Part shown: in pieces, positions 15,737-53,841 of the stretch
Numbering within the stretch: position 1 is the first letter of the stretch
Layout of the letters: each line of letters starts with the position of its first letter
From: a virus
Lineage: Duplodnaviria; Caudoviricetes
DNA: 64,000 bases
Virus record (IMG/VR): IMGVR_UViG_3300017917_003016
Coordinates: 96,001-160,000 of that record
Direction: 5' to 3' (one strand)
Translations under genes and position numbers: made by a program
The notes under the pieces: model-generated
Seen by the model: the letters and a program-made list of their open reading frames with translations, nothing else
Databases searched by the model: none
Told to the model about the DNA's origin: nothing

Positions 15737-15970
15737 ATGGGGTATGACAAAATAATCAAAGGCAACACTGTCTACGTTAAAAACGACAATGTAGATCAGG
15801 CTCTGCGCAAGTTTAAAAAACGTGTACAAGACAGTGGTTTACTGCAAGAACTTCGCGACCGCGAGTTTTATGAAAAGCCAACTAGCGTAAGAAAACGCAA
15901 GGTTGGTGCAGCCAAACAGCGTTGGCGCAAGCGTGTAGAGAGCGAGAAACTACCAAAGAAAATGTTCTAA
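15737..15970 (+). CDS. rpsU: ribosomal protein bS21
   Basis: NVDQALRKFKK...ELRDREFYEKPTSVRKRK. Confidence 0.93.
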   Translation: MGYDKIIKGNTVYVKNDNVDQALRKFKKRVQDSGLLQELRDREFYEKPTSVRKRKVGAAKQRWRKRVESEKLPKKMF

Positions 15971-17517
15971 GCAAGTATTTTTTTCATCCGATCGGTGATT
16001 AAATTATCTATAGGATAATTGCTGTTAAGAATATTTTTAATAATTACGTTATTTTGATTTTTATCTGCAAGCATGCTGTGATCGTAACCGATAGTCCTTA
16101 GTTCAGGATATTCAATTAGGTCCGCTGGGTAAAAATTATCGAAGTATTCTCGATCATCTTTTTCAACTAATTTGGCTACCTGTTTAAAACTTACCCCTAC
16201 ATTATTGACCCAACCGTCCTCTCCCCAAGTAAGTTGATATTTTTCATAGTCGTTACTCATTGAATTTGTTTTTATAACAATGTGTTTATGTTCGGGAGGG
16301 GTTACCCAAAGTGCACTATATTTGTAACTGTCAACCAATGGTGTAGTTTTTAACCAAGCCATTGTTTCTAAAATACTGTCGTACGGTTCCCATGGTAATC
16401 CGGCTATCATGAGAGCATTAATTAAAACATCCTGTTTCCATACAGATCTTAAGTGTTCAAGTGTTTCTATAATTCTAGATCGCCCAAGCCCTTTTCCAAC
16501 AAATTTGCCTGCTTTGTCATGCAAGGTTTCAATACCAAAACAACCTAATTTACAACCTGATTCCATCAACCATTGTGCACTTTCTGGATTTGACCAGATA
16601 AGGTCTAATCTCAAATAACTAACCCATTCTGGAGTAAAAGGCAATTTACTCCAAACTTCGTCGTAAAGCGTTTTAATCTTATGATCACTATCATTATACA
16701 AGTCGTCTAATAGATGATATTTGGTAACACCAAACAATTCATAATTTCGAATTAGTTCATCTAATAGCGTTTTGGTGTATTTTGTAGTATCAGATTTTCC
16801 TTTATGATCGTAGGTGCAATAAGCACATTTAAACGCACATCCTCGACTTACTTCTAAAGTTAGCCACTCATCTGGAAGGATATGATCGTTGGGAGTATAA
16901 ATTATACTACTCGATTTAAATTCTTTTTCTCCTTCGTATGACTGTGGAACTGTTGTTTTGTTTGATAAGGCGTTGGTAAAATCAACTATAAAATCTTCAG
17001 TATAACCTACTGAAAAGTGTATGAATGGGCTAGACAAATTTAACGCACCTTTTTTAATATGACTTACCCAGGTACCACCTATCATTAAATGAGCATTTGA
17101 TTTTTTAAAAGCATAATCCGCTAAGGCTGTTAATTCGTCTGTGCCCCAAGCCAGTTGCGTAACGGCGGTAGTTATATAGGTTAAGTTAGTTAATACATTA
17201 AGATTTAAAAAATCTTCAGAACTTTCTCGCCAAAGGGTTCGATATTCGTCAATATTATTAGATTTAATAGTTAAAAAGGTAGTGCTAACGCCTATCCACA
17301 ACAGTGTTGAGGCGTGTTGGTCAATGAGATTTTTAATTGCTCTTAACGTCAGACGCAGGCAATTTGGAACAACTAAAACTTCATACCCTTTAGAACGTAA
17401 CACGCTGGCTACTTTATAGGCTCCAGCGGCTCTAGAGTATCTTTCTAATTGTATACTTGTTCCTTGAAGTTCCCTTGTTAGCGGACTTCTGTCTGTAAAA
17501 AGAATTACTTGAGCCAT
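15967..17517 (-). CDS. radical SAM protein with N-terminal cobalamin-binding-like domain
   Basis: SRGCAFKCAYC (CxxxCxxC), DDLYN, FGIETL, MIAGLP. Confidence 0.8.
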   Translation of the reverse strand: MAQVILFTDRSPLTRELQGTSIQLERYSRAAGAYKVASVLRSKGYEVLVVPNCLRLTLRAIKNLIDQHASTLLWIGVSTTFLTIKSNNIDEYRTLWRESSEDFLNLNVLTNLTYITTAVTQLAWGTDELTALADYAFKKSNAHLMIGGTWVSHIKKGALNLSSPFIHFSVGYTEDFIVDFTNALSNKTTVPQSYEGEKEFKSSSIIYTPNDHILPDEWLTLEVSRGCAFKCAYCTYDHKGKSDTTKYTKTLLDELIRNYELFGVTKYHLLDDLYNDSDHKIKTLYDEVWSKLPFTPEWVSYLRLDLIWSNPESAQWLMESGCKLGCFGIETLHDKAGKFVGKGLGRSRIIETLEHLRSVWKQDVLINALMIAGLPWEPYDSILETMAWLKTTPLVDSYKYSALWVTPPEHKHIVIKTNSMSNDYEKYQLTWGEDGWVNNVGVSFKQVAKLVEKDDREYFDNFYPADLIEYPELRTIGYDHSMLADKNQNNVIIKNILNSNYPIDNLITDRMKKILA

Positions 17518-21973: not shown

Positions 21974-22509
21974 TGCATGTAATGCTGGATCTTGAGACTC
22001 TGAGCACTCGCCCAGATGCTACGATTCTTACCTTTGGTGCGTGTAAGTTTGATCCCTATCGTTTTCATGAAATTGATCAAGGGATATATTTTCGTATCGA
22101 CGTAGATGAACAAATTGGTCTAGGTCGTCATGTAGATGATAACACCATTGCTTGGTGGTCACAGCAGGCCCAAGATGTTCGTGAAGAGGCTCTAGGGGAT
22201 AGTAATCGTATTTCTTTAGAGCAATTTACGCAAGAATTAAATAGATTTATTGTTGGAGCCAAATGCATTTGGGCACAGGGTCCGGTTTTTGATATTGTTA
22301 TTTTAGAAAATCTCTATAGACAATTAGGCAAGCCTGCACCATGGCAGTATTGGCAAATTAGAGATAGTCGCACATTGTTAAGTACCCTAGGGGACCCTAG
22401 AGACAAAAACAAAGCAGGTCTGCACAATGCTCTAGAAGATTGCGTGAGCCAGGCTCAGGCAGTGCAGAAAATGTTTGGTCTATATAGTATTATTGACAAG
22501 GACAGATGA
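21973..22509 (+). CDS. DEDDh 3'-5' exonuclease
   Basis: MLDLETL, FDIVIL, RDSRTL, HNALEDC. Confidence 0.85.
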   Translation: MHVMLDLETLSTRPDATILTFGACKFDPYRFHEIDQGIYFRIDVDEQIGLGRHVDDNTIAWWSQQAQDVREEALGDSNRISLEQFTQELNRFIVGAKCIWAQGPVFDIVILENLYRQLGKPAPWQYWQIRDSRTLLSTLGDPRDKNKAGLHNALEDCVSQAQAVQKMFGLYSIIDKDR

Positions 22510-22826
22510 TGGATATAATTTTTGGTAGAGAAAACGCAGAAAGACTCCGTGAAAAATACACCGTGCTGGATCTTGAAACAGTCACTAAAGATGGAGTAAG
22601 TCTGGAAGTTTTTTGTCTTATACCTGCAGATAAAATTAGTATAATGGATCTTCCACAACTAGACAATTGGGTTAAATTGCATAACGATTTCCTGCATGGT
22701 TATCATTCTAAGCAATATAATTTCTGTCGACAGTGCATAGAGCATCTCAGAGGTAAATTCAGCGGAGAGTTAGATAGTTTCTACGATGAAATTCTAAAAC
22801 GCATTGACCAAGAAGAAAAAGTTTAA
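22506..22826 (+). CDS. stand-alone homolog of the C-terminal region of the CHASE2 adenylate cyclase (38833-40851)
   Basis: Manual alignment: IIFGRENAERLREKYTVLDLE vs MILGAKTADLVKDHFDLVELD; HNDFLHGY vs HDEFLKSY; FYDEILKRI vs YYEKMLERL. Confidence 0.65.
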   Translation: MMDIIFGRENAERLREKYTVLDLETVTKDGVSLEVFCLIPADKISIMDLPQLDNWVKLHNDFLHGYHSKQYNFCRQCIEHLRGKFSGELDSFYDEILKRIDQEEKV

Positions 22827-23386: not shown

Positions 23387-24265
23387 ATGAAAAGATCAAT
23401 ACTTGCGATTGCAGTTCTGACTGCACTAACAGGGTGTGCTAGTTCTAGCGCACTTCGAGAAAAGGCCTTTGGTGAACAGTTTGACCCTCCTACTGTAGAG
23501 CGAGAAACATTTTTTACCAAAGCAGAAAATCAATTAGCGCCGCCGGCTAGTGGACCAATCCCTGTAGCAGTCTATAGTTTTACTGACCGCACTGGACAAC
23601 GTAAAAACATTCCTAACATTGCTAGTTTTTCAACAGCAGTGACACAAGGTGGAGAAGCCTATCTTATCAAGGCTCTTCAGGATGTTGGCAACGGTCGTTG
23701 GTTTACTGTATTAGAACGTGTGGGACTGGACAACCTCATTAAAGAACGTCAGATGATACGCCAAATGCGTGAGCAATATCAGGGACGCGATGCTAAACCA
23801 TTACCGCCAATGGTGTTTGCTGGCATGATTGTAGAAGGAGCAATCACAGGATACGACAGTAATAGTTTAACAGGCGGTAGCGGAGCAAGAATTTTAGGTA
23901 TTGGCGCACAGACACAGTACCAAAGCGATACTGTTACAGTTACCCTTAGAACTATCAGTGTTAATACAGGAGAAGTTTTAACCACTGTTACTGTTACAAA
24001 AACTGTGCTGAGTTATATGGACAAGTTTGGTGTACTTAAATTTGTCAGCGCAGGCGAGCGTGCTATAGAAGCAGAGGCCGGCATGAGCATAAACGAAAGC
24101 ATTAACAAGGCCACTAGTCTAGCGGTCAAAGCAGCAGTAGTAGAAACTATTCGAGAAGGTGTCCGTAAAGGATATTGGGCACACAAGGCAGACAATCAAG
24201 AATCTGCTGTCAAGGTCGTACCTTTGCCTGCAGAACCCGCAGTGCAAAGTGAACAATTAAATTAA
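23387..24265 (+). CDS. csgG: curli secretion channel CsgG (outer-membrane lipoprotein)
   Basis: Lipobox LTGC; VAVYSFTDRTGQRK, FSTAVTQG, WFTVLERVGLDNLIKERQ, EGAITGYDSN. Confidence 0.95.
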   Translation: MKRSILAIAVLTALTGCASSSALREKAFGEQFDPPTVERETFFTKAENQLAPPASGPIPVAVYSFTDRTGQRKNIPNIASFSTAVTQGGEAYLIKALQDVGNGRWFTVLERVGLDNLIKERQMIRQMREQYQGRDAKPLPPMVFAGMIVEGAITGYDSNSLTGGSGARILGIGAQTQYQSDTVTVTLRTISVNTGEVLTTVTVTKTVLSYMDKFGVLKFVSAGERAIEAEAGMSINESINKATSLAVKAAVVETIREGVRKGYWAHKADNQESAVKVVPLPAEPAVQSEQLN

Positions 24266-24277
24266 AGGAGCAAGGCA

Positions 24278-25057
24278 ATGAAACTAAAAACTTTAGTTAG
24301 TTTAGTCGCCCTAGTAGTAGCAGGATCGGCATATGCTGCCGGCGAAACCGGTCCAAACCGCGTGTATATTGAACAAATTGGTAACACTAACCTTATAACC
24401 ATTCAGCAGGTTGGTGGCACCAACGACGTTGGCGGTGTTGCAGGCAGTGCTAGTGTTGATGTAACAGGCGTAACAACCTTGACAGTTACAGCACCTAGTA
24501 CCAGTAACTACGCTACTATTAACGGCAGTAGTAACACAGTAACACTGACACAAACTGGTAGCAATAACCAAGCACAGTACAATATCAAAGGTGGTAACAA
24601 TACCTATACCAGCACAATGACTGGTAATAATAATCAAACCAAACTAACTGTGGGTTCTACCAATACCAACGGTTCACAAAATTCAATAACTGAAACTGCA
24701 ACCGGTAGCAGTAATATGTTTATCACTGATGTTGTAGGCAGTAGCAATACTTTGGCAACTACAGTAACTGGTAGTTCAAACCAAATTACTCAGAGTGTTT
24801 TAACTAGCAATGCTGACATTACTAATACTGTTAGTGGTAGCAACAATATTTTTAATATTCAACAACGTGATGCTGCAGGCAGTGCTGGACACAGTCTGAC
24901 CATGGCAACCACAGGTGACTACAATAGCATTACCACTCAGCAGCAAGGTACTAATGACACCACTGTTAATATTTCTACTCAAGGTGATCACAATACCATC
25001 ACAGTTCGTACTAGCAGCACTAGTATATTAAACTCAGCCACAGCCATAGCGAGGTAA
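24278..25057 (+). CDS. secreted curlin-repeat protein (CsgA/CsgB-like)
   Basis: Sec signal; repeated Q/T-x-G-(S/N)-(S/N)-N beta-arc units throughout. Confidence 0.8.
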   Translation: MKLKTLVSLVALVVAGSAYAAGETGPNRVYIEQIGNTNLITIQQVGGTNDVGGVAGSASVDVTGVTTLTVTAPSTSNYATINGSSNTVTLTQTGSNNQAQYNIKGGNNTYTSTMTGNNNQTKLTVGSTNTNGSQNSITETATGSSNMFITDVVGSSNTLATTVTGSSNQITQSVLTSNADITNTVSGSNNIFNIQQRDAAGSAGHSLTMATTGDYNSITTQQQGTNDTTVNISTQGDHNTITVRTSSTSILNSATAIAR

Positions 25058-25060
25058 GCC

Positions 25061-26146
25061 GTGAGGGCTTATCTTGCTGCGGCATTGCTGTTAGCCAGCG
25101 TTGGGGCATGGGCAGGCATAGGTGTAGTCAGTGACACCAAGGGATCTGCCTGTGCAATCGAACGTGCTAAAAAATCATTACCTGGAGACAAAGGTGCAGC
25201 CGTTGAATCAATGGACACCTATGTTACCGGTGGGTGTGTGAGTAACATAACCTTTAATGACGACACTCGGGTTAAAATAACAGAAAACAGTAGACTGCTA
25301 ATCGATGATTTTGTGTTTGATCCCAAAAAGAGCGATGCAGGCAAGTTGGCCTTAAAAGTTTCCATGGGCACGGTTCGGTATGCCAGCGGGCAAATAGCCA
25401 AGAACAATCCACAGCGAGTTGATATTAAAACACCCAGTGCTACTATTGCAGTGCGCGGTACTGATTTTAACATGACTGTTGATGAAACCGGTCAGAGTCT
25501 TGTGATTCTTGTACCTAGTTGTAGAGACAAAGACAAGGTCAAAGAGTATGAATTAGAGGAAAATACCTGTAAAGTAGGAAAGATTGAGGTGACCACCCTG
25601 GCGGGAACTGTGAGTCTGGACAAGGCGTTTGAAGCAACATATGTGGTCAATGCCACAGTACCGCCCACACCTCCGGTAGTGCTAAACACAGTAGAAGGTA
25701 AGATTAGTAATCTACTGATTATTTCTGGGCCGCCTGAAATTCAGCGAATGATGAAGGACAACAGTAAGGCCCGCAAAGAGCAAGAAGATTGGGAAGCCGA
25801 ACAGGCCAGACAGATAGCACAACGTATAAAAGAAGGTCAGCACGAAGAGACTCCTAAAGTAGTTTCCTACACATTTGACAATGGAAAAACCGGATGTAAC
25901 CCTTCTACTAGTATTTGTGTGCGTTGGGAAAAACCCGACGGAGAAACCATACAGGATCGAGGCAAGGGTACTGCCTTTCGCTCAAATGCAGATCACTATG
26001 CAGAAGTCAAAACTCTAGGCTATGACAGCAACACTTCTCTAACCATTACTCACGATGACAGTGTAGCCACAGCACAGATTGGCAGCGGTGATTTTGGAGG
26101 CAACGTAGTTAACATCAAACAAACTACCGGAGTTCTAAGAAAATGA
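25061..26146 (+). CDS. exported FecR-domain protein
   Basis: Signal peptide; F.D.T.V...ENS.L.IDDF, G..RYASG, TP.ATIAVRGTDF. Confidence 0.85.
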   Translation: MRAYLAAALLLASVGAWAGIGVVSDTKGSACAIERAKKSLPGDKGAAVESMDTYVTGGCVSNITFNDDTRVKITENSRLLIDDFVFDPKKSDAGKLALKVSMGTVRYASGQIAKNNPQRVDIKTPSATIAVRGTDFNMTVDETGQSLVILVPSCRDKDKVKEYELEENTCKVGKIEVTTLAGTVSLDKAFEATYVVNATVPPTPPVVLNTVEGKISNLLIISGPPEIQRMMKDNSKARKEQEDWEAEQARQIAQRIKEGQHEETPKVVSYTFDNGKTGCNPSTSICVRWEKPDGETIQDRGKGTAFRSNADHYAEVKTLGYDSNTSLTITHDDSVATAQIGSGDFGGNVVNIKQTTGVLRK

Positions 26147-27558
26147 AGTTCGTTATCGGTCTGATATTTTTGTTACTGTCTTCACTAGCACAGGCTCAAG
26201 ACCTCAGTTGGGAATCGGGTACACTCAATGGTTGGACTGTGGGTGGCGGTAGTTCAAGTTCTGTTAAATCATCAGGTTGGAGTTCAAACGGCATAGGTGC
26301 AGCAGTCAGTGGCGGTCTTACTAACTATTCTCCAGGCGGCGGCAAAACCTGGACTATTGCTCCCTATGGTACTTACATGGGTAGCCTGCAGCCAGGCAAC
26401 GGTTCGGTAACATTCGATACTGCTGTGTCAAATCTTGGATTAAGCAGCACAGAAAACACTGCAATAAAAAGTTATCTAAGTTATCAGGCCAGCAACGGCG
26501 GCGGTGGGAACCCTACACCAACTAACGCTACATGGATCAAACAAACTGTGGCACTCACAGCAGGGCAGACCTATACCATTGCATGGAACTATCTATCAAC
26601 AGATTACACTCCTTGGAACGACGGTTCTATGATAACGCTGACTCATACTACCAATGCCAATATCACTCCAACCCTAAATAACAAACAGCAAAGATATGGA
26701 CTATTGGGATTTACCAATCCGGGAACTGGTGAATATGCCACAGGTTCATACGGTAGTACCGGCTGGCAAGTGGCCGTGTTTACAGTGCCAGAAACAGGCA
26801 ACTATGTCTTAGGTTTTGCATCATTTAATCTAGGCGACACTGCACTAAGTCCTATTTTGTTTGTTGATCAATTGCAGGGTGTTACTACACTAAATGGTCA
26901 AAGTTTTGGTCCTGTTGCACCTAATCCTGGCAGCACAGCACCAACTGCACCTTCCGGTGGTGGCAGTTCTTTGTGCTGTGGCGGAAGTTCAGCAAGTTTT
27001 ACCATGGATGCAGACAAAGCAGCCAGTGTCAACGCATTTAAAAATCGTACCACAGCAGACAGTAAGGTCTACGTAGATCAAATTGGCAATGGCAATACTA
27101 TCACTGTTCAGCAAACGGGCACTAAAAATAACTATGCAGAATACAACGGCAATGGTAGTTCTAATACGGTAAACATAACTCAAAGCGGAACTGCAGCCAC
27201 AGAAGCCAACTATACAAGACTAGATATTATTGGCAACAGCAACACTGTCAATCTAACACAGACCAGCACTGGTGGGACTAAAAGTGTATTTGCCAGTATA
27301 AACAATAACAATAATTCAGTAACCATATTACAAAAAGACGCCGGCAGTCATCACCTAGATCTTACCTTAAGCGGTGGTGGCAAAACTGTAGACATCACAC
27401 AACAAGGATCTGCAGCACACATGGCAGACATTACCCTCACAGGCGCAGGTTCACGCAGCCTTACCTTGACTCAGCAGGGCAGTACTCAGCAATTCTACAG
27501 TATTAACAGCAGTTGTGCTTCAAGTTGTCAGGCCATAACCGTCACACAAGGACAATAA
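26143..27558 (+). CDS. secreted two-domain protein: N-terminal beta-sandwich-like domain plus C-terminal curlin repeats
   Basis: Signal peptide; P/S/G linker; VYVDQIGNGNTITVQQTG matches VYIEQIGNTNLITIQQVG of 24278. Confidence 0.75.
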   Translation: MKFVIGLIFLLLSSLAQAQDLSWESGTLNGWTVGGGSSSSVKSSGWSSNGIGAAVSGGLTNYSPGGGKTWTIAPYGTYMGSLQPGNGSVTFDTAVSNLGLSSTENTAIKSYLSYQASNGGGGNPTPTNATWIKQTVALTAGQTYTIAWNYLSTDYTPWNDGSMITLTHTTNANITPTLNNKQQRYGLLGFTNPGTGEYATGSYGSTGWQVAVFTVPETGNYVLGFASFNLGDTALSPILFVDQLQGVTTLNGQSFGPVAPNPGSTAPTAPSGGGSSLCCGGSSASFTMDADKAASVNAFKNRTTADSKVYVDQIGNGNTITVQQTGTKNNYAEYNGNGSSNTVNITQSGTAATEANYTRLDIIGNSNTVNLTQTSTGGTKSVFASINNNNNSVTILQKDAGSHHLDLTLSGGGKTVDITQQGSAAHMADITLTGAGSRSLTLTQQGSTQQFYSINSSCASSCQAITVTQGQ

Positions 27559-27580
27559 ATATCTAGTGGAGGACCACAAA

Positions 27581-27661
27581 ATGAGTTGGACTAATCACAA
27601 AACGCCCACACCAAAAGTACCACCAAGCCAATCAAAACCACCGCACCAGCCTAATCGTTGA
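27581..27661 (+). CDS. putative 26-aa Pro/Lys-rich micropeptide MSWTNHKTPTPKVPPSQSKPPHQPNR
   Basis: GGAGG RBS at 27568-72; stop codon lies inside the operon terminator. Confidence 0.4.
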   Translation: MSWTNHKTPTPKVPPSQSKPPHQPNR

Positions 27662-27673
27662 TTAGGCTTTTTT
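27648..27673 (+). terminator. intrinsic terminator closing the curli operon
   Basis: agcctaatc-gtt-gattaggct followed by a T-run. Confidence 0.8.
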
Positions 27674-27796
27674 AATGGTTTTACGCATGGTTTTTAGGGG
27701 TTTTAGGCCATATACTGTGTATAAGTAATTGTGTAACAGTATTCATTGTTATACGGTTACGAGACAACTTTAGTTTTTTATAAAGGAGAAATAAAC

Positions 27797-27868
27797 ATGT
27801 GGACCAAACCCGCTGCTCAAGACAAGCGTTTCGGTTTTGAAGTAACCATGTATATTGCTGCTCGCTAA
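27797..27868 (+). CDS. pqqA: pyrroloquinoline quinone precursor peptide PqqA (MWTKPAAQDKRFGFEVTMYIAAR)
   Basis: 23 aa; MWxKP...R(F/L)G(F/L)EVT(M/L)Y signature with E-x3-Y; AAGGAG RBS; own terminator. Confidence 0.93.
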   Translation: MWTKPAAQDKRFGFEVTMYIAAR

Positions 27869-27885
27869 TCGAGTAACAAGTACTG

Positions 27886-27912
27886 AAAAGCCCGCCTAGT
27901 GCGGGCTTTTTT
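27886..27912 (+). terminator. intrinsic terminator after pqqA
   Basis: aaaagcccgc-ctagt-gcgggctttttt. Confidence 0.9.
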
Positions 27913-27955
27913 ATTGATATTTTATCAAATAAATATTATTGAATTTCAATAACAC

Positions 27956-28852
27956 ATGACTCGATATTCTTCCTATCATGAATTTGATCAAGATACAAAA
28001 AACTTACCAAGAATAAGTTATCTTGAGACCATGCTGACCTATGCTTGCACACTGAGTTGTCGCAGTTGTACAAACTACAGCGACTACGGTATGAAAGGTG
28101 GGCATGTCAAATGGTCTACAGCGAAACCGTGGTTAGATGCATGGTTTGATCGTATACGAGTGGACTGCTTTGGTTTTATTGGTGGCGAACCTCTAATGAA
28201 TCCAGAATTAGAAACATGGATTAGAGAATTTCGTAAAAACTATCCATTTACTACAATTATGATTGTAACCAATGCTCAACTGTTTACAAAAAATCTTTGG
28301 ATACTAGATGTTATGGAAGAACTAGGTATGATTTACCTTAAGTTCACTAATCACATTCCCAAAGCCAAATATTTTACCAAAGCGGTGGATACAGTATTAT
28401 CTAGATTTCCGTGGGAATATAAACCCGAGTGGGAAAGGTATTTTTATCAAGAAAAAATTCTAGACTTTCTTGTTAGTGAATCACCAACTTTTATGAAAAC
28501 CTATCGGGGTGAGTATGGTTCAATGAAACCCTACAACAACGATCCACAACAGGCATTTAAGATTTGTAATCAACAAATTTGTCCTCTTCTTTATAACGGT
28601 CGCCTCTACAAGTGTAGCAGCCTAGGTATGCTATCGAGAGTTTTACAAGACCACGGCCAAGTTGACGATCCTGACTGGCAACCGTTTGTGCAAAATCAAG
28701 GATTGGATTTAAGTTGTTCTGATGAAGAATTGCGAGCATGGGCTGATAATTTTGGTAAGCCTATTAAAGAATGTAGGATGTGCCCAACAGAGAAAGATAA
28801 ACCTTTTCATTCTCACTATGACACAGTTGTTAATAGAATTAACATTTTTTAA
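27956..28852 (+). CDS. radical SAM protein with C-terminal Cys cluster (twitch/SPASM-like)
   Basis: CTLSCRSC, GGEPLMNP, TNA; C-terminal CNQQIC...YKCS...ECRMCP. Confidence 0.85.
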   Translation: MTRYSSYHEFDQDTKNLPRISYLETMLTYACTLSCRSCTNYSDYGMKGGHVKWSTAKPWLDAWFDRIRVDCFGFIGGEPLMNPELETWIREFRKNYPFTTIMIVTNAQLFTKNLWILDVMEELGMIYLKFTNHIPKAKYFTKAVDTVLSRFPWEYKPEWERYFYQEKILDFLVSESPTFMKTYRGEYGSMKPYNNDPQQAFKICNQQICPLLYNGRLYKCSSLGMLSRVLQDHGQVDDPDWQPFVQNQGLDLSCSDEELRAWADNFGKPIKECRMCPTEKDKPFHSHYDTVVNRINIF

Positions 28853-40863: not shown

Positions 40864-41631
40864 ATGAAAAAATTACTATGCGTGGCTCTTGCCACCTTTG
40901 TAAGTTTCACCGTACAGGCAAAAGCAATTACTGCCAAAAGTTTTTTAGTAGCCGACAATCACGGCGAAATACTTGCAGAAAAAAACCCAGAAAGAACACA
41001 ACCCATTGCCAGTATTACTAAACTAATGACGGTAATGGTTGTGTTAAATGCCAGACAAGATTTGTCTGATGATCTAAATCTTGAATGGAAATTGAGAGGT
41101 AGATATCACACTAGACTACCTAGATATCTGAAAACTCTAACCCGAGGCGAACTTGTACAATTGGCCATTGTAAAGAGTGATAACTTTGCTGCATATACTC
41201 TTTGTCAAAATTATCCTGGGGGTGTAGAAAATTGTGTGTTGGCTATGAATCGAGAAGCCGCAAGAATAGGCATGCGCGATACCTATTTTACTGATCCAAC
41301 TGGATTGGACCGGGGCAATGTCAGCAATGCTCGAGATTTGGTTAAATTAGTATTAGCCGCGCATCAATACTCAGAAATCACTGCTGCTAGTTCTCAGGCT
41401 AAAGTCAGTATAACTGCACGCCGCGGCCATGCCGAATTTGGCAATACCAATCCTATGGTTAGAATGGGCGAGGATGTAATAGTCAGCAAAACGGGTTATA
41501 TTAACAGCAGCGGCGGCTGTATTGTTATGATGTTAAACACTCGCGAGGGGCCGCGTGTTGTAGTGGTCCTGGGCAGTCGTAATACTCGTACACGAATACC
41601 TGAGGCTAAACTGATTATGGCTAGGCTCTGA
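40864..41631 (+). CDS. peptidase S11 D-Ala-D-Ala peptidase (PBP7/PbpG-like)
   Basis: Signal peptide; SITK (SxxK), SDN (SxN), KTG. Confidence 0.92.
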   Translation: MKKLLCVALATFVSFTVQAKAITAKSFLVADNHGEILAEKNPERTQPIASITKLMTVMVVLNARQDLSDDLNLEWKLRGRYHTRLPRYLKTLTRGELVQLAIVKSDNFAAYTLCQNYPGGVENCVLAMNREAARIGMRDTYFTDPTGLDRGNVSNARDLVKLVLAAHQYSEITAASSQAKVSITARRGHAEFGNTNPMVRMGEDVIVSKTGYINSSGGCIVMMLNTREGPRVVVVLGSRNTRTRIPEAKLIMARL

Positions 41632-51947: not shown

Positions 51948-52538
51948 ATGCCTAATCTAGTACCAATGGTTCTTGAACGCACCAGTCAAGGTGAACGCAG
52001 TTATGATTTGTATTCAAGACTGCTCAAAGACCGCATTGTGATTCTTGACACTGACGTCAACGAACACTCAGCAAGTCTTATTGTTGCTCAATTGCTGTTC
52101 CTTGAAGCAGAAGATGCTGAAAAAGATATTTTGTTCTATATCAACAGTCCAGGGGGTATTATCACTGCTGGTATGAGCATTTATGATACCATGCAGTTTA
52201 TTCGTCCTCAGGTCAGCACCATTGTAATGGGACAGGCCTGCTCAATGGGCAGTTTTCTTGCACAAGCAGGGGCCCCAGGCAAACGTATGATGCTGCCCAA
52301 TGCTCGACACATGATTCACCAACCTAGCGGTGGTGCACGTGGCATGGCTTCAGACATTGAAATTTCCTACAAGGAAATCATGCACTGGAAGCAACGTCTA
52401 ACAGAACTTTATGTAGAGCACAATACCTCAGGTAAAACCTATGAAGATTTTGAGCGGGACATGGATCGTGACACTTTTATGAGTGCACAGGAATCTCTGG
52501 AGTATGGCCTCTGTGACGAAATTATCACTAAACGATAA
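51948..52538 (+). CDS. clpP: ClpP protease subunit
   Basis: [21 protein letters not shown] (Ser), MIHQP (His), RDTFM (Asp). Confidence 0.97.
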
Positions 52539-53841
52539 TTTTTGCTCTAGCCCGTGGTTTCATGTCAAAATAAATCCCGGCGGTGACTTTGTTCCTTGCC
52601 GCTGGGACGCCGTCACGCTGACTAGTGATTATAATATTGCAAATACCAGTATCAGCGAATATATAAATTCCTTGCCCATGCAAACTTTACGCATGGATCT
52701 ACTAGAAGGAAAACAAATAAAAATCTGTGATTCATGTAAAAATGAAGATCGGAATCACAAGGTCAGCGGAAGAAGTCGACAACTGCTCAAAAGTGCAATA
52801 GACATAGAAAATTTTAATAAAACTTTTTGTGCCAGTCCGCATTTTGAATGGTTTGACTATTCCTATAGAAATCAAGGTCTGACTAAAAATTTGCCTGTAG
52901 ACCTTCAAATTGATTTGGGCAATGCCTGCAACAGCGGGTGTTTAATGTGCCATCCAATTTATAGTAGTAGGTTGCATACAGATTATCAAAAACTTTACAA
53001 ATCAGATCCAATTGTTTTTGATTACACTACACCAAAACGAAATTGGACCGATGACAAATTTCTAGTGGATAAGTTTGTAGATGAACTATCAACTATTCCA
53101 AATTTGAGATATCTGCATTTACTTGGTGGTGAAACACTTTATCTAGAAAGTTTTTATGCTATATGTGAAAAACTTATCGAAAAAGGGTTGGCTAAAAATA
53201 TAAGCCTAGGCACTACAACAAACTGCACAGTGTATACCCCTAGATTAGAAAAAATACTACAAGAGTTCAAACATGTTCATATTGGTCTGAGTATCGAAGC
53301 ATTTCATCCTCTCAACGATTACATTAGATGGCCTAGCAAATTAGAAGACGTTCAAGAAAATATCAAAAAATTTGTGGCTTTGAGAAACTCCTCAGATCTA
53401 CAGTTGAGTTTGAGAATTACTCCCTGTAATCTCAGTATTGGTCACTTGGATACTGTGTTTGATTTTATGATCAAACATTCTATAATTGCTGAAAGTTGTA
53501 ATCTCTTAGTGAACCCTAGTTTCTTACGAATTGAAATTCTACCGCATAACCTGTTAATGTCCGCTTTAGATAAAATCAATAATGTGATTAAAAAACACAA
53601 GTTGATCCCCAATTATGATGCATATGTCAATAGAAGAAACGAGTCTATTAGAAATGAAATTGTTTCTAAGACTATTTTTGAATACAAAGACCTATTAGAA
53701 AATCTGCAACCAGTTGAAAATCCAAAGCAGGAAAGACTGAATTTGGTTAAATTTTTAAAGGGATTTGAAGAACTTAGAAAAAACTGTATCCTAGACTATC
53801 TGCCAGAATATGAAGAATTTTTACGAAGCCACAATTACTAG
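52483..53841 (+). CDS. radical SAM protein with N-terminal twitch/SPASM-like domain
   Basis: FC..PW; CDSC; [12 protein letters not shown]; GGET; true start may be 52501. Confidence 0.82.

Follow-up and report, generated by a model that had tools for sequence, protein, structure and literature searches.

Phages carrying the gene for PqqA, the peptide precursor of the redox cofactor PQQ, are not a new concept, because a viral PqqA from Lake Baikal was reported in 2020 (PMC7678222). The PqqA of that virus population, VP_266, was proposed to boost PQQ for methanol dehydrogenase (Coutinho et al. 2020, Microbiome 8:163, PMC7678222); viruses of this type were assigned to Methylophilaceae, and some carry a methanol dehydrogenase (PMC7678222). 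Viral PqqA has also been listed among phosphorus-cycling genes in reservoir sediments (PMC13188868). A glutamate and a tyrosine of PqqA are the cross-linked pair from which PQQ is formed (Barr et al. 2016, as cited in PMC7678222). In bacteria, linkage of pqqA to pqqBCDE is not obligatory; orphan pqqA genes are common in methylotrophs, and members of the Methylophilaceae have 3–12 pqqA copies versus a single pqqBCDE (PMC4109929). This copy excess supports a dosage logic that operates on the host side and is independent of the phage data. A functional analogy may be drawn, from general knowledge, with psbA (D1) of cyanophages, likewise a phage copy of a fast-consumed host energy component without the rest of the machinery, but the psbA protein and its pathway are unrelated to PqqA.

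A tblastn search of GenBank phages, a check proposed in an earlier note made from the DNA described below, shows that intact, stand-alone pqqA recurs in cultured phages. It is found in Melnitz (four strains), Venkman, P19250A, MEP301, MEP401 and MEP402, as well as in an uncultured podovirus; the nine cultured Methylophilales phage records represent four or more genome types, Kyanoviridae and Zobellviridae among them. The cultured-phage genes are 23–24 codons long with no other pqq genes nearby, and all of the GenBank phage copies have an upstream Shine-Dalgarno sequence. Gene callers miss pqqA: in the records inspected it has no annotation, or else a 'hypothetical protein' is called over it on the opposite strand. 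The Melnitz paper names PQQ only as an ingredient of the OM43 medium, present at 1 nM (PMC9004378), and our full-text literature searches found no paper noting pqqA in cultured methylophages. The two matches in 'Acinetobacter phage MD-2021a' are not viral and were rejected: they belong to a pqqABCDE operon of bacterial origin with fur and ppk next to it. We note that in MT375522 (Venkman), MW452941 (MEP301) and MW202481 (Manatee Spring podovirus) pqqA lies by recombination modules, opposite in strand to one or both neighbours. Such a position, beside recombination modules, is also typical of attachment sites; a role for pqqA as an integration attachment site, considered for small temperate-looking phages with the gene between divergent modules, does not fit a giant myophage.

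The pqqA gene examined here lies in a window of 64,000 nucleotides, by which we mean the whole stretch of DNA analysed, corresponding to bases 96001–160000 of IMG/VR record IMGVR_UViG_3300017917_003016 (201,732 bp, rated about 56% complete). In the record a tail sheath and a large terminase are matched with 705 and 404 bits, and virion proteins and a helicase are encoded as well; judged by this gene content it is a genuine giant myophage from a lake; the window also encodes ribonucleotide reductase, Hsp70, GroEL, ClpP and a curli-type CsgG module. As in VP_266, pqqA stands alone on an uncultured freshwater phage; unlike VP_266, the record has no PQQ-dependent methanol/ethanol dehydrogenase that we could find in its 202 kb, the phage belongs to a giant myophage lineage, and its peptide is of a YIAAR-tail subtype matching that of betaproteobacterial metagenome-assembled genomes (MAGs) of non-RuMP type. 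The gene likewise resembles those of the cultured Methylophilales phages in being intact and stand-alone with its own Shine-Dalgarno sequence. The cultured-phage peptides, however, are of the Methylophilaceae type ending in ...EMRFGFEVTMYVMNK, or in ...YIMTR in Melnitz, whereas the window peptide combines Gln8 and Lys10 with an IAAR tail; and the hosts of the cultured phages are known, whereas that of the window phage is deduced. The window contributes a second subtype of the peptide, a lineage of giant phages, another putative group of hosts and a recent transfer that can be seen in the sequences. The features of the locus are as follows.

27648–27668, plus strand: Rho-independent terminator of the upstream operon, a 9-pair stem followed by a T-run (terminator scan)
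27783–27788, plus strand: Shine-Dalgarno sequence AAGGAG, 8 nt 5' of the pqqA ATG (read from the sequence)
27797–27868, plus strand: pqqA coding sequence, 23 codons plus stop, 72 bp, product MWTKPAAQDKRFGFEVTMYIAAR
27885–27917, plus strand: Rho-independent terminator of the pqqA unit, an 11-pair GC-rich stem with a 5-nt loop and a T-run
27956–28852, plus strand: gene for a radical SAM protein of 298 residues with no clear family, 88 nt downstream of pqqA

The 27797–27868 product is a real member of the PqqA family. It matches the PF08042 PqqA profile with 35.4 bits (gathering cut-off 21.1) and TIGR02107 with 34.1 bits (cut-off 20), and a six-frame PqqA search of the whole 201,732-bp record returns this gene, at 31.5 bits, as the sole match above the cut-off. 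The earlier note had called PqqA at this position and suggested a profile search; both profiles exceed their curated cut-offs, and the call and its translation are exact. The E-x3-Y pair is present as Glu15 and Tyr19, inside FEVTMY. The residue at position 10 is atypical: every one of the 21 bacterial copies of the YIAAR type described below has Leu or Met there, as do 187 of 195 viral copies among the matches listed, but the window copy has Lys and its sister phages have Thr or Ala. A PDB sequence search with the peptide gave no match.

The gene is flanked by phage genes, namely the curli-type module and a tRNA array shared with sister phages, and since the curli-type operon is ended by the terminator at 27648–27668, pqqA constitutes a separate unit. 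With a Shine-Dalgarno sequence and terminators on both sides, it is predicted to be a self-contained unit of about 250 nt. The hairpin at 27885–27911 folds as RNA with an energy of -19.8 kcal/mol (z = -4.3), a stability that no sequence among 200 shuffles equals; together with the AAGGAG 8 nt upstream, this bears out the reading in the earlier note that the gene has its own ribosome binding site and terminator. The layout of Shine-Dalgarno sequence, pqqA and hairpin is common to phage and bacterial copies: (A)AGGAG occurs with the same spacing in all viral and bacterial YIAAR-type copies, and a hairpin terminator lies 3' of the stop codon in every viral or bacterial copy shown with enough 3' flank. 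A sigma-70 promoter scan of 27400–28100 returned none, including in the 128-nt spacer upstream of pqqA, and comparison by eye of the upstream spacers of the sister pqqA copies showed no obvious common motif.

The partners of pqqA in PQQ synthesis were sought in the whole record. A profile search for PqqD found no match in the 202 kb (about 56% of the genome), and PqqC was not found either, a weak negative as control genomes gave no match; the PqqE model gives only a sub-cut-off match in the whole record, to the neighbouring radical SAM protein (17.8 bits versus a cut-off of 381). The statement of the earlier note that pqqB–E are absent from the window is in keeping with these results, and in the 202-kb record, about 56% complete, the window pqqA is not linked to pqqBCDE. 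We also considered pmoC and methanol dehydrogenase as companion auxiliary genes and found neither in the record, although for pmoC this is a weak negative, no control genome having matched either.

Two degenerate-pattern scans of IMG/VR, combined with a YIAAR scan, gave a set of at least 195 viral loci. Among the matches listed, pqqA is intact at exactly 23 codons in 195 of 195 viral loci, and there are no pqqB–E genes in the 1.58 Mb of sequence flanking them. The positions of pqqA fixed by the pattern are invariant in this set because the search demands them, but the free positions 4, 6, 8, 10 and 20–23 show modest variation (195 loci among the matches listed). A control search with the Pseudomonas/Acinetobacter-type pattern RIGFEVTMY yields only two viral contigs, both with the betaproteobacterial VMNK tail, and viral pqqA thus appears to be concentrated in phages of betaproteobacterial C1-oxidisers.

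A pattern search of IMG/VR for the C-terminal FGFEVTMYIAAR identified 10 more viral loci on nine contigs of up to 215 kb. These sister contigs share many proteins with the record, at 40–78% identity, and their pqqA neighbours differ. In one, the 18-kb interval that in the window separates 22506–22826 from 40864–41631 and includes the curli module, radical SAM gene, tRNA array and a cyclase has given way to about 2 kb in which pqqA is retained, with homologues of those two open reading frames on either side. Between the window gene and its closest sisters there are 5–9 synonymous differences and one non-synonymous difference (pS 0.35–0.63, pN 0.018), and the pN/pS of about 0.03–0.05 against sister phage copies points to purifying selection on pqqA in the phage lineage. 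Codon usage gives an indication of its age: the GC3 of the window gene is 0.43, as compared with 0.74–0.78 in bacterial copies of the same type and an overall GC content of 41.7% in the phage record, suggesting that its codon usage has drifted to that of the phage during a long residence. The sister copy L134 has a host-like GC3 of 0.74 and is 92–94% identical in DNA sequence, over 72–99 nt, to an operon-linked bacterial copy, with the longest alignments taking in 27 nt of 3' flank; we interpret L134 as a recent host-to-phage transfer that is visible in the sister contig. With an ameliorated copy in the window and a host-like one in L134, the lineage thus appears to display both an old copy and a recent capture. 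The contig bearing L134, IMGVR_UViG_3300048670_001567 (94.5 kb; loci L134 and L137), is the one of the nine sister contigs that has two pqqA copies; the second is an Ile8, Ala10 variant in a slot syntenic with that of the window copy.

The peptide subtype provides a host prediction for this uncultured giant lake phage. A search of 185,579 species genomes with the YIAAR pattern gave 21 loci, mostly in freshwater betaproteobacterial MAGs, whose record titles name Betaproteobacteria, Burkholderiales or Rhodocyclaceae. Seven of the genomes, of 1.7–2.1 Mb, top each other's lists of relatives, and each of the seven has two or three pqqA genes, one heading pqqBCDE and one or two being orphans with their own Shine-Dalgarno sequence and hairpin. 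The window gene resembles the orphan pqqA genes of bacterial methylotrophs in being a short unit of Shine-Dalgarno sequence, pqqA and hairpin located away from pqqBCDE, but differs from them in its position between phage genes, its GC3 (0.43 versus 0.74) and its substitutions at positions 8 and 10. Five of the YIAAR MAGs were tested for enzymes of alcohol and C1 metabolism: they have 1–3 PQQ dehydrogenases of the methanol/ethanol family above the cut-off (best matches 702–790 bits), each has 2–3 copies of formaldehyde-activating enzyme (Fae; about 250 bits), and none of the five has a hexulose-phosphate synthase above the cut-off. In the one MAG locus examined, cytochrome c550 PedF adjoins the PQQ dehydrogenase. 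This profile fits a PQQ-dependent C1/alcohol oxidiser and not a typical RuMP-cycle member of the Methylophilaceae. The peptide type, together with one near-identical sister copy, supports the YIAAR-type betaproteobacterial group as a candidate host of the phage, and the suggestion of a PQQ-dependent, possibly methylotrophic host made in the earlier note gains support from the pqqABCDE genes, PQQ alcohol dehydrogenases and Fae of MAGs of the same subtype. Viral pqqA would accordingly extend past phages of Methylophilaceae to those of another putative methylotroph group. Five of the bacterial loci (L143, L151, L155, L156 and L160; CAZGBK01 and CAMDGF01) are in genomes of 1.7–1.8 Mb titled 'uncultured Enterobacteriaceae' or 'Klebsiella pneumoniae'; these titles look wrong, and the CAZGBK01 and CAMDGF01 MAGs appear in the nearest-relative lists of the freshwater MAGs from Betaproteobacteria.

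A broader generalization seems possible, although we would stop somewhat short of calling it likely. The pqqA gene may be a near-universal signature of phages of PQQ-dependent C1- or alcohol-oxidising Betaproteobacteria, as psbA is in cyanophages, and unrelated families of phages, from podophages of 35 kb to giants of about 350 kb, may each have picked it up on repeated occasions. The peptide tail would then report the host clade, with VMNK corresponding to Methylophilaceae and IAAR to the small-genome, Fae-positive, RuMP-negative freshwater group, and the giant-phage lineage would have further tuned the leader of its peptide (Gln8, Lys10) to its own ends.

We consider it probable that the window gene is a functional phage pqqA, an auxiliary metabolic gene that feeds host PQQ synthesis. 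It lies inside a bona fide phage genome and appears to be maintained by selection, as is expected of an auxiliary gene. The earlier note had likewise read it as supplying the precursor, and the purifying selection, the recurrence of the gene in cultured methylotroph phages and the presence of at least 195 loci without pqqB–E all favor that reading. The gene, with its strong ribosome binding site and a terminator on either side, would give a short monocistronic transcript of about 250 nt, and the 23-residue peptide would pass to PqqD/PqqE, PqqB, PqqC and peptidases of the host, which would cross-link Glu15 to Tyr19 and then excise PQQ. One peptide would be destroyed for each PQQ made, while the enzymes could be reused; because the precursor is consumed and the enzymes are not, the precursor and its mRNA would be expected to fail first when the phage stops host transcription. 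Resupply by the phage could keep the periplasmic PQQ-dependent alcohol and methanol dehydrogenases loaded, and these would sustain the energy supply through a long infection. PqqA is in this sense the sole consumable of PQQ synthesis, and a lone phage copy would indicate which step becomes limiting once host transcription stops. The analysis shows the identity of the gene, its expression signals, the selection on it, its distribution and the match to a type of host; expression during infection, acceptance of the peptide by the host enzymes and benefit to the phage are what we infer. Because Lys10 is atypical, with Leu or Met in most other copies, PqqD/PqqE need not accept the peptide. As PQQ is stable and can be reused, and as the candidate hosts have two or three pqqA genes of their own, the benefit per infection cycle is not self-evident. 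The presence of pqqA in cultivable phage-host pairs, including Melnitz and Venkman on OM43, makes the hypothesis directly testable.

The same residue 10 could be taken to indicate that the phage peptide acts as a decoy, titrating host PqqD/PqqE, or that it throttles or re-times host PQQ synthesis, since a Lys at this position (Thr or Ala in the sisters, Leu or Met in 21 of 21 bacterial copies) could alter binding or processing. Purifying selection, however, has held both cross-link residues and the conserved core, and most viral copies, including all of those in cultured phages, are of the host type, with some of the giant-phage sister copies identical in protein sequence to bacterial ones; we regard a decoy as unlikely. 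Alternatively, the phage could raise PQQ output for a payoff outside energy metabolism, either in metal or lanthanide handling or in superinfection exclusion, with PQQ blocking a TonB-dependent importer used as a receptor. Producers do secrete PQQ, and in E. coli a phage that depends on the PQQ importer PqqU is blocked when PQQ is bound there (PMC12124388), but nothing in the window points to such a payoff, viral pqqA is tightly tied to C1- and alcohol-oxidising hosts, and supply of the dehydrogenases is the simpler explanation; a payoff of this kind seems to us quite improbable.

Auxiliary supply of the PQQ precursor, which remains our preferred reading, must also be weighed against a use for the peptide within the phage itself, as pqqA is directly beside a radical SAM gene whose product could take the peptide as its substrate and convert it, instead of to PQQ, to a modified peptide specific to the phage. 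PqqE, the enzyme for which PqqA is the substrate, also belongs to the radical SAM enzymes, there are two further radical SAM genes in the window, and the 27956–28852 product has a CxxxCxxC motif at residues 31–38 and six further C-terminal cysteines. However, its match to the PqqE model TIGR02109, at 17.2–17.8 bits against the cut-off of 381, leaves it outside the PqqE family, its best NCBIfam match being viperin-like at 25 bits; only about 30 residues precede the CxxxCxxC motif, so that there is no space for a PqqD-like recognition domain, and the record, as noted above, has no PqqD that we could find. The pqqA terminator stands between the two genes, and no obvious Shine-Dalgarno sequence precedes the ATG of 27956–28852. 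Among GenBank phages its product is related, at 25–28% identity, only to a protein of a marine single-cell virus and to one of Synechococcus phage S-SCSM2R, the latter carrying the annotation radical SAM maturase. No homologue of the 27956–28852 product is near pqqA at any of the 10 sister-phage loci or at any of the 195 viral loci among the matches listed, the cultured phages bearing pqqA have no homologue, and its one relative in IMG/VR (53% identity) lacks a pqqA in the 4 kb upstream. Because this relative is without pqqA and the viral pqqA loci are without the homologue, we treat the adjacency as incidental. The 27956–28852 product was also rejected as a substitute for PqqE, being far below the PqqE cut-off in a record with no PqqD found, and with homologues that are not near other pqqA genes. 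That the peptide serves as its substrate is very unlikely.

It is just as hard to credit that the gene is a functionless passenger, whether a chance scrap of host DNA, as the clearly recent host-derived copy in one sister contig might suggest, or an open reading frame and terminator that serve the gene downstream as leader or attenuator, as might the sub-threshold matches to leader-peptide families that an Rfam scan of 27300–28300 places on the end of the reading frame and the terminator, since these matches lie far under the gathering scores and are driven by the hairpin, synonymous differences have come close to saturation while the amino-acid sequence has hardly changed, codon usage has been ameliorated, pqqA has been kept while its neighbours were swapped, and all 195 viral copies among the matches listed are intact at exactly 23 codons.

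Several other features of the window were noted. The curli-type module upstream of pqqA (23387–27558, plus strand) encodes a CsgG protein (171 bits), a FecR-domain protein and a curlin-repeat protein; a CsgG homologue (46% identity) is near pqqA in one of the 195 viral loci among the matches listed (L124). Starting 24 nt past the stop codon of the 471-residue curlin-repeat gene is a 26-codon Pro/Lys-rich open reading frame, MSWTNHKTPTPKVPPSQSKPPHQPNR (27582–27661, plus strand), which has GGAGG 8 nt upstream and ends within the terminator at 27648–27668; compared by eye, its DNA is not similar to that of pqqA. The other two radical SAM genes are a B12-binding one of the methyltransferase class at 15967–17517 on the minus strand (PhpK family, 67 bits, below the cut-off) and a twitch-domain one at 52483–53841 on the plus strand (NF033640, 243 bits, above the cut-off), which starts just before the ClpP stop codon.
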